Assembly (NCBI GenBank): GCA_050173015.1
Contig: JBFXLE010000009.1
Span: 64,001-128,000 of the forward strand
Length of the DNA: 64,000 bases
Source of the DNA: Calditrichaceae bacterium
GTDB taxonomy: Bacteria; Calditrichota; Calditrichia; Calditrichales; JBFXGD01
Reading direction: 5' to 3'
Shown here: positions 41,699-62,831 of the stretch, piece by piece
Numbering within the stretch: position 1 is the first letter of the stretch
Layout of the letters: every line of letters begins with the position of its first letter
Translations under genes and position numbers: made by a program
The notes under the pieces: generated by a model
The model's input: only the letters and a program-made list of their open reading frames with translations
Database searches by the model: none
What the model was told of the DNA's origin: nothing

Positions 41699-41750
41699 CG
41701 GGTTACTTATCTGTTATACGCCGGTATCGACATAAGTATTGTATATAAGT

Positions 41751-42042
41751 TATAAACCGGAGGTTTGTCTTTTTGAAGACTCAGGGGTGGAAAGTATTCT
41801 GCCACAAGCATAGCAAATATTTTAAAAAAATCAGCTCAAAAAGCAGGAATAACAAAAACGATAACGCCGCCTACGCGGCGTTCTTGTTTTGCGACGCGGT
41901 TGCTTGCGCAGGGTAGGGATTTAAGGTATATTCAGGAGTAGTTAGGTCAAAATAGTCCCGGGAAGACTGAACTGCACCCGTTTCGAATAAGTCTATTGAT
42001 TGAATAAGGAATTCTGTTGATGATATTTTTGAAAAGGATTAG
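41751..42042 (+). pseudogene. Tyrosine recombinase C-terminal remnant, copy 1
   Basis: YKPEVCLFE / GGKYSATSIANILKKSAQKAGITKTITPPTRRSCFATRLLAQGRDLRYIQE*LGQNS...: box II (HxLRHSFATHLL...IQELLGH) with stops and frameshifts. Confidence 0.88.
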
Positions 42043-42059
42043 TTAATTGTAAAAAAAAT

Positions 42060-42131
42060 ATATAAACAATGGTTCATACACCGCCAATTTGGGGGGATAA
42101 GAACAATGGGATATATACGAACGTTATGGGC
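42060..42131 (+). repeat. attI-like site, copy 1
   Basis: Conserved ~65-bp block shared with 46508-46580 and 55378-55451; similarity ends at the GTT core (42123) where cassette 1 begins. Confidence 0.7.
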
Positions 42132-42254
42132 AAGGCAATGAAAGAAAACGCAATGGGAGTAATATTGTCAGGAAATAGAAAGTTGGAGACTAAAAATAGC
42201 TAATATAGATGAATGTTTTGAGAAAATAAAAATAGATTCTAAAGAGAAAATATT

Positions 42255-42761
42255 ATGAGTATATACACAGATAAAACATATGTTGCTTTTGATGCTGATA
42301 ATGATATCCACTACTACAGATTGATGCAAGCTTGGAAAAAAAATGATAATTCTTCATTTAACTTTTATGATGCTCACGATTTGAATAATTTGATGTCTTG
42401 GTCTTCAGAAGAAACAATAAAAGCGAGACTTGCTGAAAGAATGAAAAACTCAAAAGTCTTTATTTTACTTGTAGGAAATAACACAAAATTTCTATACAAA
42501 TTTGTTCGATGGGAAATTGATCAAGCTTTAAAAAGAGAAAAACCTATTATAGTTGTTAACTTAAATAAAAAGAGAAGCAGGGATACCGAACGATGTCCTG
42601 CTATTTTAAATAGTGAATTAGCGGTTCATATAAGTTTTAATCAAAAGATAATTGAATACGCAATAAATAATTGGCCTAGCTCTGAGGAGTATTACCGTAA
42701 GAACAATGAAAAAGGAGATTATTATTACAAAGATTCTGTTTATAAAGAATTAGGAATATGA
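42255..42761 (+). CDS. thsB: Thoeris ThsB TIR-domain protein (cassette 1)
   Basis: KTYVAFDADNDIHYYRLMQAWK...FNFYDAHDLN and FVRWEI with the catalytic Glu: MTH538-like TIR typical of type II Thoeris. Confidence 0.85.
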   Translation: MSIYTDKTYVAFDADNDIHYYRLMQAWKKNDNSSFNFYDAHDLNNLMSWSSEETIKARLAERMKNSKVFILLVGNNTKFLYKFVRWEIDQALKREKPIIVVNLNKKRSRDTERCPAILNSELAVHISFNQKIIEYAINNWPSSEEYYRKNNEKGDYYYKDSVYKELGI

Positions 42762-43663
42762 AAATGGGTATTTACAGATGGTTGTCGAAATATAAATCTA
42801 TCCTTACAGATTTGATGTCTGGTATAGGCCTTTTTTGGCTATTTGTTGAAATAGCAAGTTATTCGACAAATGGACAAATTGACAAATACACGAAAAGCAT
42901 AGCTTTTTTCTTAGTAGGGTTTGTATTAATCATTATTATAGTGCTAATAAAAAATAGGCCTAGAACATCTTTTTCCTATAAATTACGAGATAAAGATAAT
43001 TTCATAGAAGTTAAAGTAGGTGATGCTTTTGATAATAATGGAGCTTTAATAATTCCATTCAATAATTATCTTGATGTATCTCTCGGTGGTAATGTAAAAA
43101 AGGCTAATAGTCTGCAAAACAAACTTATAAAACAATATTATTTTGATAAAGAAGAACATTTAGTTCAAGATATTTTAAAAAAAACAAATCTAACTGCACC
43201 ATTTGATATTGGTACGACTGTAGAAATTGAACAAAAAGGTAAAAGTTTTTTTCTACTAGTTAATTCTCATAAAAAAGAAAATAACCGAGTTGTATCGACA
43301 GTTGATGACTTCTTATTGAGTTTATCGAAGGTTTGGGATTTCATTGCTTTGGAATCCGGAAGAAAAAGTATAGTAACAATTCCAATAATAAGTACAAATC
43401 ACGGCAGAATAACAGACTTAAACAGAATGAATGCGATAAAAGAAATTATTAATAGCTACGTTGAGGCTTCAAAGTTTCTAAATATTGCAGATAAATTGAT
43501 AATCAGCATTTTTCCAGACGATATAAATAAAGGAAATATTAAACTTGATGAAGTAGATGAATATTTAAAGTTTCAGTGTAATCATTATAGAAAAGTTCAT
43601 TTTTCACCTAAACTAGAAGGTAAAGAAGTAAGTCCTTCAGTTACAAAGGGTATTAATAATTAA
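42758..43663 (+). CDS. thsA: Thoeris type II effector ThsA (two TM helices plus Macro domain; cassette 1)
   Basis: Two N-terminal hydrophobic segments, then IEVKVGDAF...LIIPFNNYLD, IGTTV, IPIISTNHGR Macro-like motifs; overlaps thsB by 4 nt. Confidence 0.8.
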   Translation: MKMGIYRWLSKYKSILTDLMSGIGLFWLFVEIASYSTNGQIDKYTKSIAFFLVGFVLIIIIVLIKNRPRTSFSYKLRDKDNFIEVKVGDAFDNNGALIIPFNNYLDVSLGGNVKKANSLQNKLIKQYYFDKEEHLVQDILKKTNLTAPFDIGTTVEIEQKGKSFFLLVNSHKKENNRVVSTVDDFLLSLSKVWDFIALESGRKSIVTIPIISTNHGRITDLNRMNAIKEIINSYVEASKFLNIADKLIISIFPDDINKGNIKLDEVDEYLKFQCNHYRKVHFSPKLEGKEVSPSVTKGINN

Positions 43664-43721: not shown

Positions 43722-43856
43722 GCCCATAACAATGCATATACTTTATGGCGGGTTCCGTTATGAAAATGAGTATTTTAGTTTCAAATATAAATCAGTGTGG
43801 ACAGAAAGATTTGTCTTCCAAAGTCCGCCACAAAGCATATGCTTCCCGTTATGCAC
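43722..43856 (+). repeat. attC-like site 1
   Basis: GCCCATAAC...GTTATGCAC; inner arms GCATATACTTTATGGCGG / CCGCCACAAAGCATATGC. Confidence 0.85.
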
Positions 43857-43879: not shown

Positions 43880-44737
43880 ATGATTATAATAAATGACAAG
43901 TCAATAGAGAAACTCAGAGACCTGATAAATGAAGAAACTGAATATCGGTCAGGTCCGAAACTCATCGAGTTTTTTAAAGACTTGGGCTTCAATGACTCTT
44001 ATGGTCAAGGATTTCCTTCTCGTTGGAAATATACTGATGATCGCCTTCGCAAAATTAACGGTAAACCAGAATTAGATAAGTGCATCAGAAAATTATTCAA
44101 TCCAGTTAATTTCATTGGCAAAACTTCTGAACTTGATAACCACATCAAAAATCTGAATCAATATTTAGCTTTTGATAAATGGCAGGTAGTTCGTAATGGT
44201 ACAGAAATAACTTTCAAAAAGAAAGATAAGGTTGAACTGCATGATGATTATGCAGAACTGAAAGCAGATGAATTTTTAGATAAAGAATTTGATGATATTT
44301 CAATAGATGCTCTAGGTCTTGATTCTATAGTTTCAGAAGTTCTCAAAATTCGTTTTGTAGAAATAAAGAATTGTTTTGCAGCAAAAGCACATTTGTCGGT
44401 CATTTTTCTTTCAGGCAGTAGTCTTGAAGGAATCCTACTAGGAATTGCTTTGAAGTCACCTACGGAATTCAACCAAGCTAAATCTGCACCTAAAGACAAG
44501 GAAGGCAAAGTCAAACAATTTCCTGATTGGACTTTGAGCCAACTAATTGACGTTACGTTTGAAGTTGGTCTCATCAAGGATGATGTGAAAAAATTTAGTC
44601 ATGCTCTTCGAGACTTCAGAAACTACATTCACCCATATCAGCAAGTAAGCTCGGGATTTAATCCTGATCACCATACAGCAAAAATTTGCTTTCAAGTATT
44701 GAAGGCAGGAGTATTTCAACTATCAAAAAACAAATAA
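43880..44737 (+). CDS. Putative AbiJ-like N-terminal domain plus HEPN-like C-terminal domain protein (cassette 2)
   Basis: N-terminal YRSGPKLIEFF...GFPSRWKYT; C-terminal SVIFLSGSSLEGIL...LRDFRNYIHP. Family assignment is from motif memory. Confidence 0.6.
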   Translation: MIIINDKSIEKLRDLINEETEYRSGPKLIEFFKDLGFNDSYGQGFPSRWKYTDDRLRKINGKPELDKCIRKLFNPVNFIGKTSELDNHIKNLNQYLAFDKWQVVRNGTEITFKKKDKVELHDDYAELKADEFLDKEFDDISIDALGLDSIVSEVLKIRFVEIKNCFAAKAHLSVIFLSGSSLEGILLGIALKSPTEFNQAKSAPKDKEGKVKQFPDWTLSQLIDVTFEVGLIKDDVKKFSHALRDFRNYIHPYQQVSSGFNPDHHTAKICFQVLKAGVFQLSKNK

Positions 44738-45076
44738 ATGGATACTACACAATTTAAAAACGGCTATTTCATTGAGAGAGTTTATCAACCAATCTCAGAA
44801 ACTGAATTCAAGTGTCGACTAATAGTTAAATCAAAGGCGAATAATCAAGAAATTACAGGAATAGAGACTAAAATAAATACCGTTGAGATTGGTCAGGGAT
44901 TAGCAGACTCACAATTTAGCGTTAATCCAATAAGTTGGGAGAGATATTTGAACCAGACAATTACAATGTTATTCAACATGTTGATGCTTCGTCTGAATAT
45001 TACCGACTTGCATAATGTTGACGGAGAAGATAAAATTTCTGAATTCTTTGACGAAAATCCGTTTCACCAAAATTAA
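44738..45076 (+). CDS. Hypothetical protein (cassette 2)
   Basis: 112-aa ORF abutting the upstream stop and ending 8 bp before attC-like site 2. Confidence 0.75.
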   Translation: MDTTQFKNGYFIERVYQPISETEFKCRLIVKSKANNQEITGIETKINTVEIGQGLADSQFSVNPISWERYLNQTITMLFNMLMLRLNITDLHNVDGEDKISEFFDENPFHQN

Positions 45077-45084
45077 AAAAGCCA

Positions 45085-45219
45085 GTGCCTAACATCGGCT
45101 ATAGCAAATGCGGGCTAAAGTGCTATAATGAAAGTAATTACACATAATAAACCAACTGCTAGTCGGACAAGTAAGTACCTTGAAACCCCGCACTTTCCAT
45201 AGCCATGACCGTTAGCTGC
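45085..45219 (+). repeat. attC-like site 2
   Basis: GTGCCTAAC...GTTAGCTGC; arms GGCTATAGCAAATGCGGG / CCCGCACTTTCCATAGCC. Confidence 0.85.
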
Positions 45220-45257: not shown

Positions 45258-46142
45258 ATGATTTTAGACTATTTAAATAAAACATTTAATAACAGAGAAA
45301 TCGTATTGATTTCCTATTTGACAATTTTCATTATATGGACACTTACACAGAAAAATATTAGACAGTCCATAGTGTCTGTGATTAAAGCATTTATGGCATG
45401 GAAGATACTTGTTTCAATATTTGTGTTGTTACTATATATTGCATTGATTGCTTTTGGATTATTTAAAATTGGACTTTGGGATAAATCCATGATTAAAGAT
45501 ACTGTTTATTGGACTTTTGGGGTCGGATTCATTATTATGATGAATTTTGACAAAGCATTGAAGGAAGAACACTATTTTAAGAACCTTGTCAAAGAAAATT
45601 TTAAAGTCCTTATAATCATTGAATTTATAGTTGGAATTTATGTTTTTGGTATCATCACTGAATTTATTTTAATGCCATTTGTGATTCTATTTTCAATGTT
45701 ATTAGGATACACTGAAGTTTATAAAGAGCATGGACAAGTTCGCAAATTTTTAAATGGAATCTTTGGCATCATAGGTACGATTTATTTAATTTATTCCGGT
45801 TATCATATTTACTCTGATTTTACTGGATTTGCAACTCTGGGGAATCTTAAAACATTTTTATTCCCTTTAATAATGTTTGTTCTATTTTTACCATTTGCAT
45901 ATTCCTTTGCACTATTGGCTCATTACGAGAGCTTATTCGTTCGATTAGGTTTTTTCCTTAAAGACAAAAAATTGAGAAGATTCGCTAAGTGGAGAATATT
46001 ATTGTCAGTAAATTTTAGCATTTTAAGATTAAAACGAATAACACCTGGAATGTTATTTAGTGACTGTTCTACTAGAGAAGATATAAAAAATGAGATAAAA
46101 AATAAAATAAACCCAGCAGCTAACACACAATATAGCCAATAA
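45258..46142 (+). CDS. Hypothetical polytopic membrane protein (cassette 3)
   Basis: 294 aa with about seven hydrophobic segments; the stop codon lies inside attC-like site 3. Confidence 0.8.
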   Translation: MILDYLNKTFNNREIVLISYLTIFIIWTLTQKNIRQSIVSVIKAFMAWKILVSIFVLLLYIALIAFGLFKIGLWDKSMIKDTVYWTFGVGFIIMMNFDKALKEEHYFKNLVKENFKVLIIIEFIVGIYVFGIITEFILMPFVILFSMLLGYTEVYKEHGQVRKFLNGIFGIIGTIYLIYSGYHIYSDFTGFATLGNLKTFLFPLIMFVLFLPFAYSFALLAHYESLFVRLGFFLKDKKLRRFAKWRILLSVNFSILRLKRITPGMLFSDCSTREDIKNEIKNKINPAANTQYSQ

Positions 46143-46254
46143 GGGTTTCAGTGGTATGCAAAGGGTTGTAGTGTAGCCCGCTCCAACTTTTCGTGTAACT
46201 TGATAGGAAATCACCCGCAATCCCTTACTGGCCATATTGTCAAGCGTTAGCTCC
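46116..46254 (+). repeat. attC-like site 3
   Basis: GCAGCTAAC...GTTAGCTCC; arms CAATATAGCCAATAAGGG / CCCTTACTGGCCATATTG. Confidence 0.85.
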
Positions 46255-46310: not shown

Positions 46311-46490
46311 AACGCCGCCTATGCGGCGTTATTGTTTTGCGACGCGGTTGCTTGCGCAGGGTACGGATTTAAGATATATTCAGGAGTAGTTATGTCATAT
46401 TAGTCCCGGGACGACTGAACTGCACACGTCTCAAATAAGTCAATTGATTGAATAAGGAATTCTGTTGATGATATTTTTGAAAGGGATTAG
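46311..46490 (+). pseudogene. Tyrosine recombinase C-terminal remnant, copy 2
   Basis: TPPMRRYCFATRLLAQGTDLRYIQE*L...; near-identical to 41863-42042. Confidence 0.85.
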
Positions 46491-46507
46491 TTAATCGTAA
46501 AAAAAAT

Positions 46508-46580
46508 ATATAAACAATTGTTCATATACCGCTGATTTGGGTGGATAAGAACAATAACATATACACGCACGTTAGGTTGC
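46508..46580 (+). repeat. attI-like site, copy 2
   Basis: TATATAAACAATTGTTCATA...GATAAGAACAATAACATATACACGCAC then GTTAGGTTGC (46571). Confidence 0.7.
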
Positions 46581-46595
46581 ATTAAAAAAGAAACC

Positions 46596-47180
46596 ATGAA
46601 ACTATATCACAGATACAACATAAAGAGAAAACAAGAACATTTATTTTTGGAGTTTATCTTGAATAATATTCCAGGAATAAATTATTTAAAAGAGAATTAT
46701 CGTCTTACAGAAAATGAATATGATTCATCAATTGAGATAAAACCCATAATTGATTCATTAAAAAATGACACTTGGTTACCAAAAAAGCGTAAACAAAATT
46801 GCATTGACATTTTACAGGACATTAAACTTAATCATGACAAGGTCGTAGTATTTGAATCGGTTAATAAAATATCATTTGATTTCACTATTAAAATAGATAG
46901 TGACTTGTTTTTCTTTGAATTACACGAAGACCAACACAAGAAGTTAAAAGTAAATAGACAGTCAAAAATATTTGATATCCAAGGAAATGAAATTTTTGTT
47001 CCTCGTTATTTACAAAGATTATTAAAGGATATTTGGCGCTGGGAGAATCTTGACAACTACAAGATAATTTGGGCTGACTGGTTTATTTCATCATCAAATA
47101 AACTTTCTAACTTGTTGGAAAAAGGAAAAATCGAATACGGAATAGATAATACATTTCAATTTAAAAACTTAGGAATATGA
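46596..47180 (+). CDS. Hypothetical protein, possible PD-(D/E)xK/Vsr-like nuclease (cassette 4)
   Basis: SFDFTIK...FFFELHEDQH and a later RLLKD resemble the D...ExDExQH pattern of DUF559/Vsr-like nucleases. Confidence 0.55.
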   Translation: MKLYHRYNIKRKQEHLFLEFILNNIPGINYLKENYRLTENEYDSSIEIKPIIDSLKNDTWLPKKRKQNCIDILQDIKLNHDKVVVFESVNKISFDFTIKIDSDLFFFELHEDQHKKLKVNRQSKIFDIQGNEIFVPRYLQRLLKDIWRWENLDNYKIIWADWFISSSNKLSNLLEKGKIEYGIDNTFQFKNLGI

Positions 47181-47844
47181 ATATTGAAGAATTGGAACAA
47201 AAGATTGCGAAACTTAGAAACGAAATAAAAAAGGATACTCTAGAACTTGAGAATGTTCCCGAAAGATTTATTTCAGTAATCAAAGGAGAACTGAAAACAA
47301 AAGAAGGTAGATTAATTGATTTGGAGTTAAAACTGGATGATTTAATTGAAAATGGAATTACTGATAGGCTGCAAAAGCCAATTGATGAATTACAAGAGAA
47401 AATTAAATCGTTTATTCTTGATTATCAATTTCAATATCCACAGGACAAAGAAATGTTTATCTATCAAATTGCATTTGAAGAAAATGATGATGAACTCTTG
47501 ATAAGCTTAAAACCAAAGGAAAAAACCACAAATCGATTGAACAAATACAACAAGGATTTACTAAAAGTTACAATAGAGAACAAAGTAATACAAGAACCAA
47601 AAGCTACTGACCTTTTATTAAGACTTTAAAGCACTTTTCAATTAAAAAAGTTAAATCACTTGACCTTGTATTCTTAGGAGTTCCCTTAATCGCTGAATAT
47701 AGCCATGACAAATATCAATAGAAACAAATATCAAACAACCTTTTCGTTTTGACTCAGATTTCCAAAGATAAAAAGAAAGAAATTCTTGAATATATTGCAG
47801 AAAAATTCAATCAGAGTATAAAAATCGAATTTGTGAAGAAATAA
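47177..47844 (+). pseudogene. Coiled-coil protein gene disrupted by a frameshift and an internal stop (cassette 4)
   Basis: Track ORF ends at 47629; restoring one base near 47611 continues ...TDTFIKTLKHF...GVPLIAEY...KYQ*(47719)KQI...KIEFVKK* to a TAA at 47842-47844 next to attC-like site 4. Confidence 0.65.
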
Positions 47845-47845: not shown

Positions 47846-47982
47846 GCAACCTAGCACGCAATAAAAAACATAGGGCAGAAAGTGCAAAAATTGAACGACA
47901 TAACATTTAATAAACGACTTGGTAACTTGACAGGGAAGTGCTTCGAAATGCCAAACGTTTCATATACGTAACCGATAGCGTT
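47846..47982 (+). repeat. attC-like site 4 (degenerate cores)
   Basis: GCAACCTAGC (AAC to AGC) ... GATAGCGTT (GTT to GAT); arms still partly complementary. Confidence 0.75.
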
Positions 47983-48070: not shown

Positions 48071-48133
48071 AAATGGCATATTTGGTTTTTGCCGACGCAC
48101 AGCCAAACGCTGAAAAAACCAAAAGAGCCATTT
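48071..48133 (+). repeat. Inner hairpin motif H1 (5' end of cassette 5)
   Basis: AAATGGC-ATA-TTTGGTTTTT ... AAAAACCAAA-AGA-GCCATTT. Confidence 0.75.
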
Positions 48134-48163
48134 CTTGCCATCTCACGACTGAAAGATAATGAT

Positions 48164-51010
48164 ATGACAACATATAAAAATCAAAATCCTGAACAAATAG
48201 CCAGAGACAAAATTGACAAAATGTTAATTGAAGCTGGTTGGATTGTTCAATCTAAAAATGAAGTTGACTTGGGTGCAGGCAGAGGTGTTGCGTTGAGAGA
48301 ATACCAAACGGAAACAAAATTTGCGGATTATGTGCTGTTTGTTGACAAAAACCCTGTTGGAATTATTGAGGCAAAAAAAGAAGACGAAGGACATAAACTA
48401 ACCGTAGCGGAAGACCAAGCCTCTGAATATGCCAAAGCAAAACTAAAATATTTGGATAACGACCCATTGCCTTTTGTTTTTGAGAGTACCGGAACAATAA
48501 CCCGTTTTAGAGATACACGAGACCCAAAACCAAGAGGGCGACATATTTTTTGGTTTTACCGTCCCGAAACATTGGCGGAATGGCTACAAAAAGATAAAAG
48601 TTTAAGAGGTAGATTATTAGATATTCCGCAATTAAATGAGACTGGGCTTCGCCCTGCTCAAATTAAGGCGATTAATAACCTTGAACAATCTTTTAAAAAG
48701 AACAAGCCAAAAGCTTTAATACAAATGGCTACCGGAGCAGGTAAAACTTTTACTGCCTGTACTTTTGTGTATCGCTTATTGGAACACGCCAAAGCCAAAC
48801 GGATTTTATTTTTGGTTGACACCAAAAACTTAGGAGAACAAGCAGAACAGGAGTTTATGGCTTTTCAGCCCAACGACAGCAATCGCAAATTCACAGAATT
48901 GTATAATGTACAGCGTCTTACTTCAAGCTACATAGCAAGCGATAGTCAGGTTTGTATCTCTACCATTCAACGGATGTATGCCATTTTAAAAGGTGAAGAA
49001 CTAGACGAAGGAGCCGAAGATACAAACCCGAACGAATCGACCTGGATGGAACAACAGCGAAATAAAAAACAGGCAATGCCTGTGGAATATTCTGCCAAAG
49101 TACCCATTGAACAATTCGATTTTATTGTAATTGATGAATGCCACCGCTCTATTTACAATCTTTGGAAACAAGTGTTGGATTATTTCGATGCTTTCCTTAT
49201 CGGCTTAACTGCCACACCCGATAAGCGAACTTTTGGCTTTTTTGAGGAAAATGTAGTGAGCGAATATACCTATGAAGAATCTGTGTTGGATGGTGTAAAT
49301 GTTCCTTACGATGTGTACAATATTGAAACTGAAATTTCGCAAAAAGGCAGTGTGATAAAAGCAGGTTGGTTTGTGGACAGACGAGATAAGCTCACCCGAA
49401 AAACGCGTTGGCAACAAGAAGATGAAGACACCGAATATTTGAAAAACGATTTGGATAAAAAGGTCGTTAATCCAAGCCAGATACGGAATATTATTCGCCA
49501 ATACAAAAAAGCATTGGAAACCGAAATTTTCCCGAACAGAAAAGACGAAAATGGAGAATACGAAGTTCCTAAAACACTGGTTTTTGCAAAAACTGACAGC
49601 CACGCGGATGATATAATCAAAATCATTCGTAAAGAATTTGACGAAGGCGATGATTTCTGCAAAAAACTGACTTATAAAATAAAAGAAGACCCAAAATCGG
49701 TGTTAAACCGTTTTCGGAATTCATATCATCCCCGCATTGCGGTTACGGTAGATATGATTGCAACGGGAACCGATGTAAAACCTTTGGAAGTGTTGTTGTT
49801 TATGCGTGATGTTAAAAGCACCAACTACTTTGAACAAATGAAGGGTAGAGGAACACGCACCATTAACAAAGATGCTTTTCAGGCAAACAACACCAATGTA
49901 AAAGGGGCTTGCAAAACCCATTTTATTATTGTGGATGCAGTTGGCGTAACAAAGTCGAAGAAAACCGACAGCCGGCCTTTGGAACGCAAACCAACTGTAG
50001 CCTTAAAAGATTTATTGGGAGCGGTAACAATGGGAGTTACCGAAGAAGATTTGTTTCTTTCGCTTGCAAATCGTTTGATACGATTAGAAAAAGAAATTAC
50101 CGACAAGGAAAAAGATAAATTACTGGAACATTCCAAAGGCAAAAATCTGAAACAAATCAGCAAAGAATTATTATCGGCTTTTGATAAAGATGAAATTGAA
50201 AACAGAGCACAGGAAAAAATTGAAAAATTCTGTAAAGACGCCCTACAGGGCGTCTCTTCTGCTGCCGATTTATCTCCGGCACAAATAGAATCTTTCCGAC
50301 AGGACGCACAGAAAGAATTGATTAATACCGCCGCTTCTACTTTTAACGGAAAGCTGAACGATTATATTGAAAAAGTGCGTATGGAACACGAGCAAATTAT
50401 CGACAGCCACAATATCGACACCGTAACAAAATCGGAATGGGACACCGCTTCGGTGGATAAAGCCAAAGAAACTGTAAAAGATTTTAACGAATACCTCGAA
50501 GCCAATCAGGACGAGATAAAAGCATTGACCATTTTTTACAAACAACCCTACAACCGCCGAAACATTACCTTTAAAATGATTAAAGATGTGTTTGATAAAC
50601 TGAAATTGGATAAACCCACCCTTGCCCCCGATTATGTTTGGGCGGCATACAGCCAATTGGAAGAGGTAAAAAGCAAACAACCGATTGACGAACTCACCGC
50701 GTTAATTTCGTTAATTCGCAGGGCTTGCGGAATTGACAGCGAGTTGAAAGCTTTTGATTCCACCATTGACGAAAATTTCAAAAACTGGATTTTCAAACAA
50801 AACGCAGGCAAGCACAACCGCTTTACAACCGAACAAATGGACTGGCTGCGAGAACTGAAAAATCACGTAGTAAATTCGTATCACATAGAAATTGAAGACC
50901 TCGATTATACACCCTTTGATGAAAAAGGAGGACGTGGCAAAATGTACCAACTCTTTGGTGCCGAAATGAACGATATTATTAATGAACTTAACGAGGTATT
51001 AGCAGCATAA
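48164..51010 (+). CDS. hsdR: Type I restriction enzyme, R subunit (cassette 5)
   Basis: ADYVLF...IIEAKK nuclease motif, MATGAGKT, DECH, TATP, QMKGRGTR. ATG 48164 is preferred because the track start 48089 lies inside hairpin H1. Confidence 0.95.
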   Translation: MTTYKNQNPEQIARDKIDKMLIEAGWIVQSKNEVDLGAGRGVALREYQTETKFADYVLFVDKNPVGIIEAKKEDEGHKLTVAEDQASEYAKAKLKYLDNDPLPFVFESTGTITRFRDTRDPKPRGRHIFWFYRPETLAEWLQKDKSLRGRLLDIPQLNETGLRPAQIKAINNLEQSFKKNKPKALIQMATGAGKTFTACTFVYRLLEHAKAKRILFLVDTKNLGEQAEQEFMAFQPNDSNRKFTELYNVQRLTSSYIASDSQVCISTIQRMYAILKGEELDEGAEDTNPNESTWMEQQRNKKQAMPVEYSAKVPIEQFDFIVIDECHRSIYNLWKQVLDYFDAFLIGLTATPDKRTFGFFEENVVSEYTYEESVLDGVNVPYDVYNIETEISQKGSVIKAGWFVDRRDKLTRKTRWQQEDEDTEYLKNDLDKKVVNPSQIRNIIRQYKKALETEIFPNRKDENGEYEVPKTLVFAKTDSHADDIIKIIRKEFDEGDDFCKKLTYKIKEDPKSVLNRFRNSYHPRIAVTVDMIATGTDVKPLEVLLFMRDVKSTNYFEQMKGRGTRTINKDAFQANNTNVKGACKTHFIIVDAVGVTKSKKTDSRPLERKPTVALKDLLGAVTMGVTEEDLFLSLANRLIRLEKEITDKEKDKLLEHSKGKNLKQISKELLSAFDKDEIENRAQEKIEKFCKDALQGVSSAADLSPAQIESFRQDAQKELINTAASTFNGKLNDYIEKVRMEHEQIIDSHNIDTVTKSEWDTASVDKAKETVKDFNEYLEANQDEIKALTIFYKQPYNRRNITFKMIKDVFDKLKLDKPTLAPDYVWAAYSQLEEVKSKQPIDELTALISLIRRACGIDSELKAFDSTIDENFKNWIFKQNAGKHNRFTTEQMDWLRELKNHVVNSYHIEIEDLDYTPFDEKGGRGKMYQLFGAEMNDIINELNEVLAA
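50232..50259. repeat. Degenerate REP palindrome in frame inside hsdR
   Basis: GTAAAGACGCCC-TACA-GGGCGTCTCTTC, translated as CKDALQGVSS. Confidence 0.7.
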
Positions 51011-52548
51011 TGAGAGAAGATTGGATTGACGTTGAATTAAAAGATGTTTGCCTAAGTTCAAAGGGAAAGAAACCAAGTGTTTTAGAAAAAAATAATTCTG
51101 AAACTGCTAATGTGCCATATATAAATATCAAAGCTTTTGAGAAAGGTATAATAGAAGAATACACTGATGGTGAAAAATGCAATTTATGTGAAGATGGTGA
51201 CTTGTTAATGGTTTGGGATGGTGCAAGGGCTGGGCTTACAGGTAAAGCTAAAAAAGGTGCTGTTGGTTCAACACTAATGAGAATTGAAGAAGTAAAAGGT
51301 ATTGAAAAGGAATATTTATATTATTTTCTTTTATCACTTTTTACAAAGATTAATACAAATCCAAGAGGTGTTGGTATTCCACATGTTGAACCACGAATAC
51401 TATGGTTGTCAAAAGTATTAATTGTTAGCAGTCCCATCCAACGAGCAATAGTATCCAAAATCGAAGCCCTGTTTTCCGATTTGGACAACGGCATCGCCAA
51501 TTTAAAAAAAGCACAGGAGCAATTAAAAATATACCGTCAAGCGGTTTTGAAAAAGGCCTTTGAGGGCGAACTCACAAAAGAATGGCGTGAAAAGATTGTA
51601 CAGACGCCCAATTTGGGCGTATCAACGCCCCTGCCAACAGCCGAAGAACTGCTAAAACAAATAAAAGAAGAACGCCAAAACCACTACAACCAACAAATTG
51701 AAGACTGGAAAAAAGCGGTTAAGGAATGGGAGAAAAATGGGAAAGTTGGGAAGAAGCCAAGTAAGCCTAAGCAGCAAAAAGAATTGCCACCTTTAAATGA
51801 GGAAGAATTGAATGAGCTGCCGAAATTGCCAAAGTCAATGGTATGGACACAACTTGGAAATGTGGTTTGGTCTGTAAAAGATGGACCTCATTTTAGCCCT
51901 AAATATTCAAAAACTGGTATACCCTTTATCTCAGGTGGGAATATTAGACCAGAAAAAATTGACTTTGAAAAAGTAAAATATATTTCAGAAGAGCTTCATA
52001 AGGAACTAAGTCGAAGATGTAAACCACAATTAGATGACATTCTATACACCAAAGGCGGAACAACTGGAATTGCAAAAGTTAATACATATAAATTTGATTT
52101 TAATGTTTGGGTGCATGTAGCAGTATTAAGACCAATCCAAATGATTTTACCATTATATTTACAACATGTTTTAAATTCTTCTCATTGTTATAAACAATCG
52201 CAAGAATATACACATGGGGTTGGTAATCAAGATTTAGGTTTAACAAGAATGATTTTAATCACACTGCCTATTTGTTGTAAAGAAGAACAAACCCAAATCG
52301 TCCAAGAAATAGAAAGCCGTTTATCGGTTTGCGACAAAGTAGAGCAAAGCATAACCGAAAGCCTTGAAAAAGCCGAAGCCCTTCGCCAAAGCATTCTTAA
52401 AAAAGCATTTGAGGGCAAATTATTAAGCGAAGCTGAAATAGAACAATGCAAAAAGGCAGCCGATTACGAACCTGCGGCAAAATTGTTGGAACGAATAAAA
52501 CAGGAAAAAATAAATAAGGATAATAATAAAAAAACAAAATCAAAATAA
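51010..52548 (+). CDS. hsdS: Type I restriction enzyme, S subunit (cassette 5)
   Basis: Two TRDs with repeated conserved blocks Q..IVS.IE...RQAVLKKAFEGEL and EQTQIVQEIE...RQSILKKAFEGKL. Confidence 0.94.
   Translation: MREDWIDVELKDVCLSSKGKKPSVLEKNNSETANVPYINIKAFEKGIIEEYTDGEKCNLCEDGDLLMVWDGARAGLTGKAKKGAVGSTLMRIEEVKGIEKEYLYYFLLSLFTKINTNPRGVGIPHVEPRILWLSKVLIVSSPIQRAIVSKIEALFSDLDNGIANLKKAQEQLKIYRQAVLKKAFEGELTKEWREKIVQTPNLGVSTPLPTAEELLKQIKEERQNHYNQQIEDWKKAVKEWEKNGKVGKKPSKPKQQKELPPLNEEELNELPKLPKSMVWTQLGNVVWSVKDGPHFSPKYSKTGIPFISGGNIRPEKIDFEKVKYISEELHKELSRRCKPQLDDILYTKGGTTGIAKVNTYKFDFNVWVHVAVLRPIQMILPLYLQHVLNSSHCYKQSQEYTHGVGNQDLGLTRMILITLPICCKEEQTQIVQEIESRLSVCDKVEQSITESLEKAEALRQSILKKAFEGKLLSEAEIEQCKKAADYEPAAKLLERIKQEKINKDNNKKTKSK
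51598..51626. repeat. Degenerate REP palindrome in frame inside hsdS
   Basis: GTACAGACGCCCAATTTGGGCGTATCAAC, translated as VQTPNLGVST. Confidence 0.8.
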
Positions 52549-52599
52549 TTGTGAAACGCGTTGGACGTATTTGTCGCATTTGACGCGTTGGACGCATTG

Positions 52600-52628
52600 G
52601 TAGAGACGCCCAATTTGGGCGTCTCTAC
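52600..52628. repeat. GTAG-type REP palindrome upstream of the RAYT
   Basis: GTAGAGACGCCCAA-T-TTGGGCGTCTCTAC, perfect 14-bp arms. Confidence 0.88.
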
Positions 52629-52700
52629 GACGACGATCCCTACGATCCCGATCCCGACGACGACAATATCGTTCACGTTCACAATAACGAAAACAAAAAT

Positions 52701-53312
52701 ATGCCCGATAAATTTCAAAACAAATACCGCATACCATCGGCACGATTGCAAACATGGGATTATGGAAGCAATGGAACCTATTTTATAACCATTTGCACCC
52801 AAAACCGTGAACATTATTTTGGTGAAATTACAGACGGTAATATGATATTATCCGAAATAGGAATTTTGGCGAACAAATATTGGAATGAAATACCAGAACA
52901 TTTTCCATTTGTCAATTTGGATGAATTTGTGGTAATGCCCAACCACGTGCATGGGATTATTATCATTGATAAACCCGATGATGGACGGGATGATGGGCGG
53001 GACGTTGGACGGGACGTTGGACGGGACGTAGAGACGCCCAAATTGGGCGTCTCTACCAATACCAATACCAATACCAATACCAATCATCAAACCGCCACGG
53101 CATCCGAAAAATGGAAACCGGCATCATTGGGGGTAATTATCAACCAATATAAACGAATGGCAACCATTAAATCGCGTAAAATCCACGCTGATTTTGGTTG
53201 GCAATCCCGTTTTTACGACCAGATCATACGAAACAACGAATCGTATGAAAAAATCAGAAATTATATTGTCAACAACCCATTGAAATGGGAAGAAGATAAA
53301 TTTTACAATTAA
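52701..53312 (+). CDS. REP-associated tyrosine transposase (RAYT, Y1 HUH family)
   Basis: SARLQTWDY...YFITICT, VVMPNHVHGII (HUH), WQSRFYDQIIRN...YIVNNP. Confidence 0.92.
   Translation: MPDKFQNKYRIPSARLQTWDYGSNGTYFITICTQNREHYFGEITDGNMILSEIGILANKYWNEIPEHFPFVNLDEFVVMPNHVHGIIIIDKPDDGRDDGRDVGRDVGRDVETPKLGVSTNTNTNTNTNHQTATASEKWKPASLGVIINQYKRMATIKSRKIHADFGWQSRFYDQIIRNNESYEKIRNYIVNNPLKWEEDKFYN
53028..53056. repeat. GTAG-type REP palindrome in frame inside the RAYT gene
   Basis: GTAGAGACGCCCAA-A-TTGGGCGTCTCTAC (VETPKLGVST), flanked by 12-bp and 6-bp tandem repeats. Confidence 0.88.
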
Positions 53313-53327
53313 ATTGAAAGAAATAAT

Positions 53328-54848
53328 ATGTCAGAAAGTGCAATAGTATCAAAAGTGTGGAATTTCGCCAATGTTCTTAGAGACGATGGAGTGGGTTATG
53401 GTGATTATTTAGAGCAAATCACCTATTTGCTTTTCCTAAAAATGGCAGACGAACTTAACAAACCGCCCTACAATAAAGGTTTAAAATTTCCGAAACTCAA
53501 AAATGCTGAGGGTGTTGAATTGCCCGATGCCGAAACCTGCGACTGGCAAACGCTGTCGCAAAAACGTGGTTTGGAATTGGAAAATTTTTACAACCAAATG
53601 CTACGAAGTTTGGGAAGCGAAAAAGGAACGTTGGGGCAAATTTTCGTAAAAAGTCAAAACAAAATACAAGACCCATCAAAACTCTTAAAAATCATTGATA
53701 TGATTGATAAAGAGCAATGGAGCTTAATGGGAACCGATGTAAAAGGGAAAATTTACGAAGGTCTTTTAGAGAAAAATGCCGAAGACACCAAAAGCGGTGC
53801 AGGGCAATATTTTACGCCTCGTTCGCTCATCAAAACAATGGTGGCTTGTGTTCGTCCCAAACCCATGAAAACCATTATAGACCCTGCTTGTGGCACTGGC
53901 GGTTTCTTTTTGGCAGCTTACGATTATATCAAAAGTCAGAATTTAGACCAGGAAGAAAAGGAGTTTTTGAAAAACAAAACTTTCTACGGAAACGAAATTG
54001 TAGCCAATACACGCAGAATGTGTTTGATGAACATGTTTTTGCACAACATTGGCGAAATTGATGGCGAAACACTCATTTCTTCAGCTGATGCTTTGGTTTC
54101 GGACAATGGCATACGCTACGATTATGTGCTGGCAAATCCGCCTTTTGGTAAAAAAAGCAGTATGACCATTACCAACGAAGAGGGCAAACTGGAAAAGCAG
54201 GATTATACTATCAATCGTCAGGATTTTGTGGCTACCACAGCCAACAAGCAACTAAACTTTTTGCAACACATAAAAACGCTTTTAAAACTCACAGGCGAAG
54301 CAGCCGTTGTACTTCCCGATAATGTTTTGTTTGAGGGCGGAGCAGGCGAAACGGTTCGGAAAGAATTGATGAAAACAACCGAATTGCATACAATTTTAAG
54401 ACTTCCAACAGGTATATTTTACGCACAAGGTGTAAAAGCAAATGTTTTGTTTTTCGACAACAAACCAGCTTCAAAAGAGGCTTGGACAAAAGATGTTTGG
54501 ATTTATGATTATCGAAGTAACATAAGCCACACATTAAAGAAAAACCCAATGCGATTTGAGCATCTACAGGAATTCGTAAAACTCTACAATCCCGAAAACC
54601 GAAATAAAAGAACAGAAACGTGGAGCGAAACAAATCCCGAAGGCAGATGGAGAAAGTATAGTTATGCTGAAATCATTGAACGAGATAAAACCAACTTGGA
54701 TATATTTTGGATTAAAGACAAAAGCTTAACCGACTTAGATAATTTACCCGACCCCGATATTTTGGCAAACGAAATCATTGAAAACATTGAAGCCGGATTA
54801 AATAGTTTTAAAGAAATAATGGAAACAATAAACGGAGATGAAAGCTAA
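53328..54848 (+). CDS. hsdM: Type I restriction-modification N6-adenine methyltransferase (cassette 5)
   Basis: GQYFTPR, DPACGTGGF, NPPF, LRLPTGIF. Confidence 0.96.
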   Translation: MSESAIVSKVWNFANVLRDDGVGYGDYLEQITYLLFLKMADELNKPPYNKGLKFPKLKNAEGVELPDAETCDWQTLSQKRGLELENFYNQMLRSLGSEKGTLGQIFVKSQNKIQDPSKLLKIIDMIDKEQWSLMGTDVKGKIYEGLLEKNAEDTKSGAGQYFTPRSLIKTMVACVRPKPMKTIIDPACGTGGFFLAAYDYIKSQNLDQEEKEFLKNKTFYGNEIVANTRRMCLMNMFLHNIGEIDGETLISSADALVSDNGIRYDYVLANPPFGKKSSMTITNEEGKLEKQDYTINRQDFVATTANKQLNFLQHIKTLLKLTGEAAVVLPDNVLFEGGAGETVRKELMKTTELHTILRLPTGIFYAQGVKANVLFFDNKPASKEAWTKDVWIYDYRSNISHTLKKNPMRFEHLQEFVKLYNPENRNKRTETWSETNPEGRWRKYSYAEIIERDKTNLDIFWIKDKSLTDLDNLPDPDILANEIIENIEAGLNSFKEIMETINGDES

Positions 54849-54990: not shown

Positions 54991-55123
54991 AACGCTAACA
55001 CGCGGTATAAAACATTGGGGTTTAAGTATTTATTCGAGCGTTCTACCCCGCATCAAGTTCGGTGTAACTCGACAGGATAGTAGCCCGCAATCCCTTACGA
55101 GTCATACACTCAAAGTTAGTTCC
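54991..55123 (+). repeat. attC-like site 5
   Basis: AACGCTAAC...GTTAGTTCC; shares CCCGCAATCCCTTAC with site 3 and CGCAATCCCTTAC with site 7. Confidence 0.82.
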
Positions 55124-55179: not shown

Positions 55180-55361
55180 AACGCCGCCTATGCGGCGTTA
55201 TTGTTTTGCAACGCGGTTGCTTGCACAGGATAGGGATTTAAGGTATATTCAGGAGTAGTTAGGTCATAATCGTTCCGGGACTACTGAAATTTGCGCACAT
55301 CTCAAAAAAGTCTATTGATAAAAACAGTAATCCTACGGATGATATCTTTGAAAGGGATTAG
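55180..55361 (+). pseudogene. Tyrosine recombinase C-terminal remnant, copy 3
   Basis: TPPMRRYCFATRLLAQDRDLRYIQE*LGHNRSGTTEICAH: the catalytic Tyr position reads Cys. Confidence 0.87.
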
Positions 55362-55377
55362 ATAATTGTAAAAGAAA

Positions 55378-55451
55378 TATATAAACAATTGTTCATACAC
55401 CGCCAATTTGGGCGGATAAGAACAATAGAATATATACGAACGTTGTGTGGC
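55378..55451 (+). repeat. attI-like site, copy 3
   Basis: TATATAAACAATTGTTCATACACCGCCAATTTGGGCGGATAAGAACAATAGAATATATACGAAC then GTTGTGTGGC (55442). Confidence 0.7.
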
Positions 55452-55484
55452 ATTAGAAGTAACTTACATAAAAAAGGGTGACTT

Positions 55485-56072
55485 ATGGAAATAAAATTTG
55501 ATGTGGAAATACAAGATGAAGAGAAAGAACTTCTGAAAACGATATTACATTGTGATAATGATGAAGACTTAAATAATCTCTTGAATAAATTAGGCCGTTC
55601 TTCATTTGAAGATATTAGAAGAATGACAATTGGACAAAAAGTATTTACTCGTGGAAGAGATATTTTAGAATATCGGTTATTTAATTTAATAAAGTTTTTC
55701 TTCGATGGGAAAATACCAGACGAACAAAAAATATGTGATTTATTCCAAATAACGGCAACTGAAAGTCGAGCATTTATTCGCTCAATAATGTCAAAGTATC
55801 AATATGACTTAAAAGAAACAATATCTTCAACATTAAAAGAACAAGTAGAAAATATTCAAAAAGAAGAAAATGAAGAAGTTTATAAACTTTCCATTCAAAA
55901 CCAGTATTTCAAAGATGAATTAAATAGAATATTAGGAACAATAGACACAAGTTTACCGATTATTGAAAAAGAGCGGGGAACTATTTCTACTTATGTAATT
56001 CAAACATCATCTTACCAGAAGTTATGTGAACATTTTGGCATTGAACTAGAAGAAGAAAACAATGAAAACTGA
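55485..56072 (+). CDS. Hypothetical protein with possible HTH (cassette 6)
   Basis: 195 aa; PDEQKICDLFQITATESRAFIR is HTH-like. Confidence 0.75.
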   Translation: MEIKFDVEIQDEEKELLKTILHCDNDEDLNNLLNKLGRSSFEDIRRMTIGQKVFTRGRDILEYRLFNLIKFFFDGKIPDEQKICDLFQITATESRAFIRSIMSKYQYDLKETISSTLKEQVENIQKEENEEVYKLSIQNQYFKDELNRILGTIDTSLPIIEKERGTISTYVIQTSSYQKLCEHFGIELEEENNEN

Positions 56073-56481
56073 TTTACCTAATTTATTAACTGCATCAAGT
56101 ATTCTATTGGGAATTATTACTGCATTATATGGTTTATTTTTTCCTGCGATTAATTCAATTTTAGTAATAAAATCTAAGCCCCATAAGGTTGATAATAAGA
56201 AGGCCTACAGTGAAAGCAAGGATATTATAAAAGCAAAATATATTCCATTATTAATTGGTTCGTTAGTAATTACATTGATAAACATACCAGAGCTGTTTTC
56301 TCAATTAAGAAATAGTTTTGTTGCAATAAAAACTAGTGGAATAGAGAACACAACATATGATACGTTAACAGCATCATTTATTGTCGTTTGCCTTTTTATG
56401 ATTTTCATTACGATAATGATGATAGCAACTGGTTTTAAGTTAAGAAAGAAAATAAAAGAACTTAATCCAAATGAACAATAA
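56062..56481 (+). CDS. Hypothetical membrane protein, about three TM helices (cassette 6)
   Basis: 139 aa, overlaps the upstream gene; stop lies 1 bp before attC-like site 6. Confidence 0.78.
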   Translation: MKTDLPNLLTASSILLGIITALYGLFFPAINSILVIKSKPHKVDNKKAYSESKDIIKAKYIPLLIGSLVITLINIPELFSQLRNSFVAIKTSGIENTTYDTLTASFIVVCLFMIFITIMMIATGFKLRKKIKELNPNEQ

Positions 56482-56482: not shown

Positions 56483-56619
56483 GCCACACAACAAAAAATA
56501 TAGTGCATTTGGCAGATGGTGCTAAAAATGAAAATGATTGCAATAAATGAACATAGTAGTAAATTGAAAGCTTGGAGCGTTGAAATGCCAAACGCACCAT
56601 ATTCAAACCGTTGTATGCC
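56483..56619 (+). repeat. attC-like site 6
   Basis: GCCACACAAC...GTTGTATGCC; arms AATATAGTGCATTTGGCA / TGCCAAACGCACCATATT. Confidence 0.85.
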
Positions 56620-56705: not shown

Positions 56706-56737
56706 TATTGTCAAACGCACATAGACTAAAACTAAAA

Positions 56738-59700
56738 ATGAATGAAGAAATAGTATCAGCAAGTGGAGAAAGAGCAGCAATGGGAGGCTATTTGCCTCAA
56801 TTTGATGAGTTCGCTTGGTTTGTCTATTTGAATCTAATAAATAAAAAGCTTGAATGGATACGAATAGCAGACTCCAAGGCTGAAAAACTAGATGATATAC
56901 AGTATTCTACTCATTCAGAAATTCATGCATACCAAGTAAAATGGACTATCGCTGATGCAAATATATCATTTGCAAATTTTACGGATTTGTTTCCTCTTAT
57001 CACCTCTAGTTGGAAGAGTTTAAAAACAGCTAATCCTAGCAAAAAAATAATTCCTCATTTAATCACTAACAAACCTATTTCCTCCCACGACAGCTTAAAG
57101 GTAGGCGATACAAAAATCGGTTCATTTCAAGACTTCGTCTCAGAAGTTTGGGTAAAGCTAAAATCAAATCAATCAATTGATGATAAGTGGAAACAAGTTC
57201 TTGAGGAACTCAAAAAGAGTTCAAAACTCAATGATTCTGAATTTGGAGAATTTATCATCTCTTTTGATTTTCAACCAGACTATAAACAAAAACAGTTTAG
57301 TATAGGAAATATTAAATACTCTAAAGAAGACGAAGACCTTCAACAGATCAGTCGATATATAGTACAAAAAGTTGCTAGCCCGAAAAGAGTCGTTGAATTT
57401 ACTCGCCAAGAAATTATTAAAGAATTAGGTTGGTCTGATAGATTTAAAACAATTTTTAATCACGAGTTAATAGTCGATAGACAAAGATACCAGCCGATTC
57501 AATCGACAATTGACCTGTTAAATTCAAAGTTAGAGGAGCATAAAAATGGATACCTGTTTTTGCTAGGTGGCCCAGGTTCTGGAAAATCTACCTTATTGAA
57601 TCAATGGTCAAAAGGCCTTAAAACACGAATAATACGATACTACGCCTTTGATTTCGTTAATCCATCTTCACACTTAAACTTTTATGAAAGAGGAAATGCT
57701 ACCCATCTTTTTTTCGATTTAGTTTTTCAATTAAAGGAAGCTGGAATATATAAAAGAGACATTCTTCCATATAAAGACTTACTTTTTCTAAAAGATGTAT
57801 TCAATGAGCAATTAAGTGCAATTGGAGAGGACTTTGTGACAAATGGTCAATCGACCATAATATTGATTGATGGTCTAGATCATGTTCCTAGGGAATACAA
57901 ATCAACAACTAATAGTTTCCTACGAGAACTTCCTTTACCATCTTCTCTCCCAAACGGGGTCTTCATCATTTTAGGTAGTCAATCTTATGAACTTGAAGAC
58001 ATTCAACAGGAAATTAAAACTGAATTTCAGAAAGGAAATAGAACCATTCAAATTGATCCACTTAAAAAGGAGGAAGTATACAAGTACATTGATAATCTTG
58101 ATACTTCAATTCAACTTAATGGTTCTCAAAAGCTGCAAATATTTGAGAAATCAGAAGGACACCCGTTATACCTGTCATACTTAATTGAAAAAATCAATAA
58201 CGCAGATTCTATTAACGATACAATCGAATCTTTTGAAGTTATTGATGGTAGTATTGATAATTATTACAAAAAAATATGGGAGCCTATCCAGAAAGAAGAT
58301 AGCCAAATTCAATTCTTAGGTTTAATTGCGAGAATTAATGGTTTGATCAAACTTCAGTTCATTCAGGAATGGGACTTCCAACCGAGTGTTTTAAAGTCCT
58401 TTCGTGAAAAGGCCAGATTTCTGTTTAATGAAACCGAAAAAACTTTGTCTTTCTTTCATAATTCGTTCAAGCAATTCCTTCTTCATCATACCTCTTTAAA
58501 TTACTTAACAGATGAGTTTGATCCGACAATTAACGTCAATTATCATAGTCAACTTACTGATTATTATGTAAAATCAGAGATTGAAAAATCCTGGAAACAG
58601 AATCATCACCTATTTCAGGCTAAACAATATGATAAGTTTATTTCAGAAGTTACCCCAAATAGTATTACTGAACAGTTACTTAACTTCAGACCAGCAGAAG
58701 AAATTAAGCAGGATGCAAAATTGGGAGTTGAAATAGCAAGACAGAATAAGGACATTAATACTCTGGTAAGATATCTGTTTTCATTAGCAGAAATTGAAAG
58801 AAGATTATTCAATATTGATCCCACATCCTTTATAGAAGAACTTTTGTACCTAAATAAATACGACTTAGCAAGGGATTATCTAAGAACTGGCAACACCCTC
58901 CATTGTAGCGAATCGTACGCATTTAAAGCATGTCGATTGTTTATTGAATCTGGGCACAAATCAGAAGGAGCAACTTTATACAATTTGGCTTATCCAGAAA
59001 TCATTACAGATTCCGGGATACATATTGATGATTCTCACAGATATGAAGAAATAAGAGATTCTTTAGAAGAATGGATTTATACTTCTCCCTATTTTGAAGC
59101 AACCGAGAATATTTTCTCAATAATTGAGAAAATTCAATTCTCAGGTAGCATACGGAAAAACAGGTTTGAAGAAGAAGAATCTGATTTACTTTTAAGGTTA
59201 CTCTCTAATCTTGGTTATAGTTTAGTGGATCAAAACAAGTGGGATGATTTTAATAAAGTCATAGAAAAAATAGATTCGAGGTCTTCAAGAGGAAGGAATT
59301 CTCTTTTCCAACTTATAAAGTACGCTATCGAGCAATGCCTTGACTTAAAAGATAGTAGTCGAGTGAATGAATATCTGTCATTTTTAACCACTCATTTCAC
59401 AAAAGAGAAGACAAAATCCATTGGCAAAATATTCATTGCAGATTTAGTCTATAAAGTCACTAGAGACCTAAATGAAACATATAGTTGGATTAAGGAAGTT
59501 GAGCAACCATCTAATGTGGGTAAAGACCAGCTAGGATATGATGATTCGTTAGACGCCTTTCTTCCATTAATCAAACTTAACAAGTTACTTAACCTATGTG
59601 GAAAAGGAGTTTCGATTACGTCTGCAATTCCATCTGTTGCGAAAGGTACTGATGAAGAAGTTTTAGTGGAGTTTGAACGAATGTTATGTATTACCACTCA

Positions 59701-62809: not shown

Positions 62810-62831
62810 CCATGAATCCAAACGCTCGCAT

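Follow-up and report, generated by a model that had tools for sequence, protein, structure and literature searches.

Introduction

Among the described systems closest to the locus analysed here is rAID-1 of gut Bacteroidales, in which a 'XerD-family' tyrosine recombinase lies 5′ of co-oriented, low-GC genes with T6SS-immunity cargo, and whose intergenic repeats were described as 'reminiscent of integrons'; close homologues of the recombinase were said to be restricted to that context (10.1101/471110; PMC12247911). For integrons proper, the joint origin of the I2 domain of the integrase and the extrahelical bases (EHBs) of the attC sites has been called a chicken-and-egg paradox (PMC4792948). 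An 'inverted integron-integrase group' is known, so that co-orientation of integrase gene and array is not new by itself, and recombinases near attC sites that lack the IntI-specific insertion have been dismissed as not being IntI (PMC4889954), while an 'integron-like' subgroup shows an incompletely conserved insertion (PMC8138268). Complete integrons appear to be nearly absent from Bacteroidetes (PMC9024848).

Here, we compare with these systems a stretch of 64,000 nt from a Calditrichaceae bacterium (assembly GCA_050173015.1, contig JBFXLE010000009.1, positions 64,001 to 128,000), referred to as the window, which carries a decayed tyrosine recombinase gene followed by an attI-like site and an array of hairpin-terminated cassettes. 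Sequence comparison with intact relatives suggests that the intact form of this enzyme is quite likely the own integrase of a co-oriented attI-like site and cassette array.

The recombinase remnant and cassette array of the window

All coordinates of the window array are given in Table 1.

Table 1. Recombinase remnants, attI-like sites, cassette cargo and attC-like hairpins of the window (bits, covariance model score; G, crossover position)
Feature	Position	Strand	Basis or remark
Pseudogene, 3′ third of an insertion-less tyrosine recombinase (patch III, box II, C-terminal tail)	41742..42042	+	frameshifts, profiles, tree
Inverted repeat in decayed box II codons, terminator-like on both strands	41855..41890	.	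copies 2 and 3 begin here
attI-like site 1: inverted repeat (arms 42059-42087 / 42089-42117), TAYAC-like box, G|TT crossover, G 42123	42043..42129	+	sister strain diverges here
Cassette 1 cargo: Thoeris ThsB (TIR) and ThsA (Macro)	42255..43663	+	profiles
attC-like hairpin 1, G 43848	43723..43855	-	model, 85 bits
Cassette 2 cargo: 285-aa ORF (weak Stk2-model match, N-terminus) and 112-aa ORF	43880..45076	+	
attC-like hairpin 2, G 45211	45086..45218	-	model, 81 bits
Cassette 3 cargo: 294-aa hydrophobic ORF, no family match	45258..46142	+	
attC-like hairpin 3, G 46246	46117..46253	-	model, 93 bits
Second, shorter recombinase remnant and attI-like site 2 (G 46571), joined to 65-nt cassette-type leader	46311..46574	+	
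Cassette 4 cargo: two ORFs, no family match	46596..47629	+	
attC-like hairpin 4, both core triplets degenerate, G 47974	47848..47981	-	model, 61 bits
Cassette 5 cargo: type I restriction-modification (R, S, M) with inserted RAYT-like transposase gene	48089..54848	+	
attC-like hairpin 5, G 55115	54992..55122	-	model, 69 bits
Third recombinase remnant and attI-like site 3 (G 55442)	55180..55452	+	
Cassette 6 cargo: two ORFs, no family match above cut-off	55485..56481	+	
attC-like hairpin 6, G 56610	56485..56617	-	model, 80 bits
Cassette 7 cargo: 2033-aa STAND/NACHT ATPase, partial Avs1b-model match	56708..62809	+	
attC-like hairpin 7, last site of the array, inner arm shortened, G 63051	62935..63058	-	model, 61 bits

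A peptidase M49 gene ends about 45 nt before the start of the remnant, and DNA similarity to an intact gene begins near 41742. According to the preliminary description, the remnant went from a '...KY...' segment straight into YKPEVCLFE/GGKYSATSI...KAGI and then box II. Most of this reading could be located: a 1-nt deletion shifts the frame between YKPEVCLFE (41751-41777) and GGKYSATSI (41786-41812), and KAGI (41840-41851) and a decayed box II (TPPTRRSCFAT, 41864-41896) follow; the KY segment had to be given up, as HKYC (41731-41742) sits in a third frame and is not the KYP motif of IntI. The tail IRNSVDDIFEKD is found past a 4-nt deletion at 42004-42039, with the stop codon at 42040-42042. The lesions are two frameshifts and an internal TAG at 41939; with the histidines of HxxR and LGH and the catalytic tyrosine lost, the gene is dead. 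The resemblance is not due to chance, since the 54-aa open piece matches tyrosine-recombinase profiles (E 5e-11 to 1e-5) and the remnant-plus-site block is present in five copies in the genome (three in the window, the others on contigs C5 and C43). The remnant is cut off directly before YKPE and therefore shows by itself only a 10-residue gap after patch III; the missing 32-residue part before patch III is evidenced solely by intact relatives.

All three remnant copies of the window contain the terminator-like inverted repeat of box II, and copies 2 (46311) and 3 (55180) start exactly at it; both are joined at an AAC to the 65-nt cassette-type leader, which recurs at 63051 without a remnant. 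A scan of 41650-42300 for a Pc promoter, restricted to the sigma-70 type, gave no match on the + strand. Neither an intact family gene (tblastn and profile) nor an IntI above cut-off was found in the window genome G000, which is 97.5 % complete, and XerC and XerD, encoded by separate genes, are its only intact close recombinases.

The array behind the remnant consists of seven cassettes with mostly anti-phage cargo, has a GC content of 29-39 % versus around 43 % upstream, and has all of its cassette ORFs on the + strand, like the remnant. The crossover G 42123 lies 81 nt past the remnant stop, in agreement with the earlier placement of an attI-like site about 20-80 bp after the stop on the strand of the cassettes. 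Each window cassette terminates in an imperfect palindrome of 124-137 nt, and the nine bases following its opening GTT are complementary at 6-8 of 9 positions to its own inverse core, versus 0-6 to those of the other window cassettes. This own-end complementarity is the signature that circles inserted at G|TT would leave.

A covariance model built from 33 sites of other genomes recovered exactly the seven window sites, at 61-93 bits, and no site in the first 41 kb of the window. Over the whole genome the model matched 13 sites, five of them behind the C5 remnant. Rfam gave no match at the window sites, and a strict RYYYAAC...GTTRRRY scan recovered none of the seven because their cores are looser.

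There are several further observations on the repeats and cassettes of this genome. A second hairpin family lies immediately inside the ends of the two large cassettes (48071-48133, 54864-54921, 56644-56705, 62828-62897 and 63138-63171). The RAYT-like gene within the type I restriction-modification cassette (in 51598-53312) is accompanied by 29-nt palindromes at 52600 and 53028, and a third copy is embedded in frame in hsdS at 51598. The C5 sites form a second array of five behind another remnant (G000:C5:153649-163459); one of its cassettes encodes a 725-aa protein whose N-terminus presumably resembles catalase-peroxidase.

In a 97 %-identical sister contig, the same broken remnant is followed by another first cassette that starts at G|TT. 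Therefore, cassettes changed after the death of the gene, and an enzyme acting in trans was needed. Paralogous platforms within one genome behave similarly, being identical or one base apart up to G|TT and diverging thereafter (L068/L069/L081 and L041/L045).

Intact relatives lack the IntI insertion

A scan of GTDB genomes confirmed at least 531 relatives, of which the best 80, mostly from Bacteroidota, were used, so that the sample leans towards close relatives. P0001 is an intact 278-aa gene from a genome of the same order that is followed by the same attI-like block as in the window. Its residues 180-201 span residues 181-245 of VchIntI4, and in the alignment the family lacks 32 residues of IntI ahead of patch III and another 10 behind it (42 in total). 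The integron-integrase model TIGR02249 scores 214 on P0001, against a cut-off of 265, with the match split into two pieces. An insertion profile trained on 42 IntI proteins, i.e. our own equivalent of the intI_Cterm HMM, detected 37 of 37 held-out IntI proteins (59-110 bits), none of 81 family proteins and none of 31 XerC/D-type proteins. The expectation that intact homologues would lack the insertion was thus borne out. In agreement with this, helices 170-183 and 200-213 of the AlphaFold model (pLDDT 87) are connected by no more than a loop. By fold, the model matches VchIntI4 best (2a3v, TM 0.71), with archaeal XerA behind, while the best PDB match by sequence is 4a8e, an archaeal XerA.

Like IntI and IS91-type recombinases, the family has an N-terminal Phage_int_SAM_4 domain and, at the C-terminus, a tail of the form S/N-P-L/M-D. 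Minimal members of 275-287 aa also head arrays, so that no extra domain is needed. An N-terminal HARP-like domain, considered as a requirement, was rejected: it is below cut-off in L079, and the closest members, which are minimal, lack it.

Cassette arrays behind intact genes

Bottom-strand model matches are strongly concentrated behind the intact genes, with 134 downstream (332 kb) versus 5 upstream (519 kb) over 85 loci, 33 of these matches being training sites. By locus, 32 of the 44 with at least 2 kb of downstream sequence were matched, versus 3 of 73 upstream; the 12 loci without a downstream match include the short-site array L100, two truncated plasmid copies and one IS91-type gene. 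A first cassette could be delimited at 26 of 31 testable loci: 28-326 nt past the stop codon, these have a GTT that corresponds to the inverse core of the first site; the test failed in the other five. Among 73 adjacent cassettes, 66 match their own end at 5-6 of 6 positions and 60 do so perfectly, the mean being 5.47 versus 2.16 for shuffled pairings (maximum 2.70). The earlier claim that the recombinase points into the array extends to the intact homologues: downstream of them, in the same orientation, come the attI-like block seen here and hairpin cassettes. These homologues neither carry the insertion and group inside IntI nor stand without cassettes.

From the 80 loci, 48 were taken, one per carrier genome; IntI was found in 9 of these genomes, and 39 had none above cut-off. 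Two chromosome-level carrier genomes without IntI hold at least 150 sites each, and one array in an IntI-less genome stretches over about 370 kb behind the family gene. These super-integron-sized arrays belong to Prolixibacteraceae (G108:C1, around 1.96-2.33 Mb, and G109:C1).

Insertion-less relatives in 6 of 29 phage loci have their sites upstream and on the opposite strand (L233, L238, L239, L241, L243 and L249), i.e. the orientation is not fixed across the wider group. At one locus, an IntI gene with an internal TAG adjoins an insertion-less recombinase (L206; G090:C1:303410-306586), and in a Chryseobacterium plasmid a group II intron sits in the inverse core of a family-type site (L097:14460-16473).

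Anatomy of the sites

The arms of the sites behave as base-paired stems: 95 % of the alignment cells are paired and 744 cells are compensatory, a level reached by none of 500 shuffles, with 26-49 % of cells paired in slid controls, though fitting of the alignment to the model favours such pairing. The bottom strand pairs better in 43 of 46 sites, the top strand in one, with two ties; the selection of these sites was blind to wobble pairs. In the inverse-core arm, A·C mismatches, which are G·T pairs on the bottom strand, recur at fixed places among 112 distinct sites, i.e. at +1 in 97, at +10 in 73 and at +15 in 93, and the R′ arm carries a surplus of 2-3 nt beside the core.

Bulges on the R″/L″ arm, where canonical sites carry their EHBs, are scarce: 13 of 115 family sites have them, or 23 if wobbles are treated as mismatches, against 51 of 51 sites in a control of eight IntI arrays, one of which supplied 24. 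Matches judged false (L205, L206 and one in L216) were dropped from this control. The stem score by which the training sites had been selected penalises bulges; this bias is offset only in part by the 60 perfect matches among 73 neighbours, which argue that few bulged sites were missed. The training set left out the tandem repeat L068 and the near-duplicate sites L051 and L063. The IntI arrays of the same phylum, compared over stretches beyond the 1.5-kb flanks, follow another site design with 2-3 bulges and gave one strong model match in 21 stretches. The absence of I2 together with the scarcity of bulges indicates that loss of I2 is matched by loss of its ligand.

Among the attI-like blocks, 11 of 29 carry an inverted repeat (z < -2), so that a hairpin at this place is not general in the family. 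Around the crossover, partner sites have just the triplet in common, and no identical overlap of 6-8 bp.

Phylogenetic position

In a quick tree of 76 rows, the family (support 98), IntI (100) and XerC/D (100) are separate, and the remnant groups with P0001 and the closest, Calditrichota-type relatives (97). A mixture-model tree of 45 of these rows shows the family (91/94), IntI (100/99) and IS91-type recombinases (95/94) as a trichotomy, divided from XerC/D by a branch with 100/100 support; both trees sampled these four groups. A clade of family plus XerD was rejected (AU test, p=7.7e-7), whereas a position of the family as the first branch of the trio, next to all XerC/D, was not (p 0.43). 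P0001 reaches 204 and 209 bits with TIGR02224 and TIGR02225, whose cut-offs are 335 and 330, and NF040815 is the only NCBIfam model passed by a family recombinase (238.7 versus a cut-off of 220). A placement as sister to IntI, seen in the quick tree (89), is unsupported by the mixture-model tree and the AU test. A homologue search starting from an IS91-type recombinase returned near-copies only.

By these sequence criteria, the family is neither XerD nor inside IntI, and is placed as a clade of its own beside IntI and IS91-type recombinases. Of the two labels in the preliminary description, 'non-IntI' thus stands, while 'XerD-like' has to be dropped in view of the rejected clade, the branch to XerC/D, and the domain and tail shared with IntI and IS91-type recombinases.

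Proposed mechanism and alternative explanations

The family enzyme is very probably the catalyst of cassette movement. Cassettes would move as circles that start after G|TT and end in a palindrome of about 130 nt complementing their own start. The enzyme probably recombines the folded bottom strand with a double-stranded attI by one exchange at AAC/GTT, i.e. it would bind both partners and exchange one strand pair at this triplet. To select the strand, the enzyme would rely on the G·T pairs and the spacer instead of on EHBs bound by an I2 helix. The resulting junction would be resolved by replication, a putative step that we somewhat favour. This chemistry has a precedent, because XerCD recombine the EHB-less hairpin of CTXphi without I2 (PMC4792948). 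As the enzyme of the window genome is dead, any later change in its cassettes would depend on an intact copy supplied in trans.

Alternatively, canonical IntI acting in trans might have built the arrays, with the insertion-less recombinase as a passenger. IntI is present in 41 of 86 genomes of this phylum, the core triplet and G|TT crossover are canonical, one family-type site (46.6 bits) falls inside an IntI array, and deletion of the EHBs barely affects bottom-strand recombination for some attC sites (PMC5027507). One genome (G049) has IntI and two family-type sites, with no intact family gene among the matches listed. The change of cassettes behind an already dead remnant also agrees with IntI in trans, and it speaks against the array having been served by its own integrase: the copy is dead, yet the sister strain has another first cassette, and some other source of enzyme acted. 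We nevertheless regard IntI in trans as improbable, given that the window genome and 39 of the 48 carriers, including the chromosome-level ones with at least 150 sites, are without it, that the first cassette begins at a short distance behind the family gene at most testable loci, and that the IntI arrays of the phylum use the bulged site design.

A related possibility is that the family enzyme is the cognate one, and acts on double-stranded sites by a classical exchange of two strand pairs, the palindromic arms being mere binding sites. In favour of this route, an I2 helix that could block the second exchange is absent, double-stranded activity on attI x attI is retained even by IntI (PMC4792948), and the inverted repeat of some attI-like blocks would suit such binding. 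However, arms lying about 120 nt apart covary as pairs while their sequence is not conserved, folding is biased to one strand, and partner sites have no common overlap beyond the crossover triplet, which makes this route unlikely. The least credible explanation, and a very improbable one, is that cassettes are moved by HUH enzymes of the IS91 or RAYT type, or by host XerCD, with the recombinase as a leftover IS91 helper. IS91-linked recombinases are among the nearest outside relatives, a RAYT-like gene lies in cassette 5, and G000 has XerC and XerD as its sole intact close recombinases; on the other hand, it is the attI-like block and cassettes, not a transposase, that follow the family genes, the IS91-type proteins form a clade of their own, and the short palindromes that belong to the RAYT gene lie within a single cassette. 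Recombination by the family enzyme at a folded bottom strand thus remains our preferred explanation.

Comparison with known systems

The window locus itself is a dead copy. On plasmids, a family recombinase also lies directly before the antibiotic resistance genes tet(X3) (where the recombinase is annotated 'tnpF') and blaVEB-3. The similarity among tet(X) contexts begins at the G of GTT, and tet(X2)/tet(X) forms a complete family cassette on plasmids of Myroides, Riemerella and Empedobacter (L217:6001-7335, L218:4228-5562, L219:6001-7335 and L096:6793). The start of these cassettes perfectly complements their own inverse core, the hairpin scores 32-34 bits, and the neighbouring genes differ. 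The site code that bounds tet(X2) and adjoins other resistance genes on Flavobacteriales plasmids may offer a mechanism for their origin. Further family-type sites adjoin aadS, catB, ere(D) and lnu genes. At tet(X3), the gene occupies the attI position behind the 'tnpF' recombinase and the hairpin is cut; blaVEB-3 on a Klebsiella IncC plasmid (L098:6756-6867) is immediately preceded by a family recombinase, a GTT stands close upstream of the gene, and no hairpin is left behind it.

IntegronFinder requires the insertion in its integrase test, so that family platforms would not be called integrons, and standard integron searches would likely miss this route of gene acquisition, whose cargo represents a pool of defence genes. 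Given single genomes with at least 150 sites, such missed platforms may explain the scarcity of integrons in Bacteroidetes. Since I2 and the extrahelical bases of attC are held to make integrons work, a natural system without both would make the question of their origin testable.

The full-text literature, with few subscription papers among the sources covered, yielded no description of an insertion-less, EHB-less integron, of long-site arrays outside Bacteroidales, or of tet(X) as such a cassette; the sources covered include PMC2426708, PMC8618304 and PMC13644095. The supplements of PMC4889954, with four 'intermediate' recombinases, and Fig. S4 of the rAID preprint, with its motifs, may bear on novelty.

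With canonical integrons (IntI1, VchIntIA/IntI4) the system has in common a recombinase, an attI-like site and a cassette array, the AAC/GTT core with G|TT crossover, bottom-strand-biased hairpins, own-end complementarity, sedentary arrays of at least 150 sites and defence-rich cargo. In contrast to them, the family is without the IntI insertion and I2 helix and outside the IntI clade, its hairpins mostly have fixed G·T pairs in place of EHBs, and, as far as cellular members were examined, the attI-like site follows the 3′ end of a co-oriented gene. The folding of an EHB-less single strand that is recombined by an I2-less enzyme would be shared with CTXphi and IMEX (PMC4792948), which, however, borrow host XerCD and dif and do not build arrays, whereas enzyme and attI-like site are both dedicated to the system in the family. 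IS91-associated recombinases and archaeal XerA are of the same size and also lack the insertion; the IS91-type proteins differ by their separate clade and, at the one neighbour checked by profile, by a Y2 transposase.

The relationship with rAID-1, whose recombinases are defined by an identity of over 44 % to BF9343_RS08045 of B. fragilis, is the closest. A Bacteroides ovatus array (L100) with immunity genes and a GC content of 29-35 % is headed by a recombinase that is 59 % identical to P0001 and falls inside the family clade in both trees, and 9 of 11 of its cassettes keep the own-end rule at 6 of 6 positions. Therefore, the family is already in print under another name and with a narrower scope. 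The window array, too, shows the rAID-1 arrangement of at least two co-oriented downstream genes with a GC content of at most 41 %. It differs in its host, which belongs to Calditrichota and not to Bacteroidales, in its cargo of Thoeris, type I restriction-modification and an Avs-like ATPase in place of orphan interbacterial immunity genes, and in its sites of about 130 nt with a GTT core, those of L100 being short with an ATT core; the available parts of the rAID-1 descriptions give no crossover, fold, strand bias or comparison with IntI (10.1101/471110; PMC12247911). Seen from its sequences, the system would work like an integron, fails two of the tests that define IntI and attC, and extends rAID-1. 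It is tempting to speculate, and on balance we lean towards this view, that it represents a complete second integron lineage, with an enzyme of 275-290 aa that has neither I2 nor an extra domain, bulge-free, G·T-marked bottom-strand hairpins and super-integron-sized arrays in Bacteroidota and Calditrichota, of which rAID-1 would be the gut branch and from which the tet(X) cassette would stem; it may reflect an earlier stage, prior to the gain of I2 by IntI and of extrahelical bases by attC.
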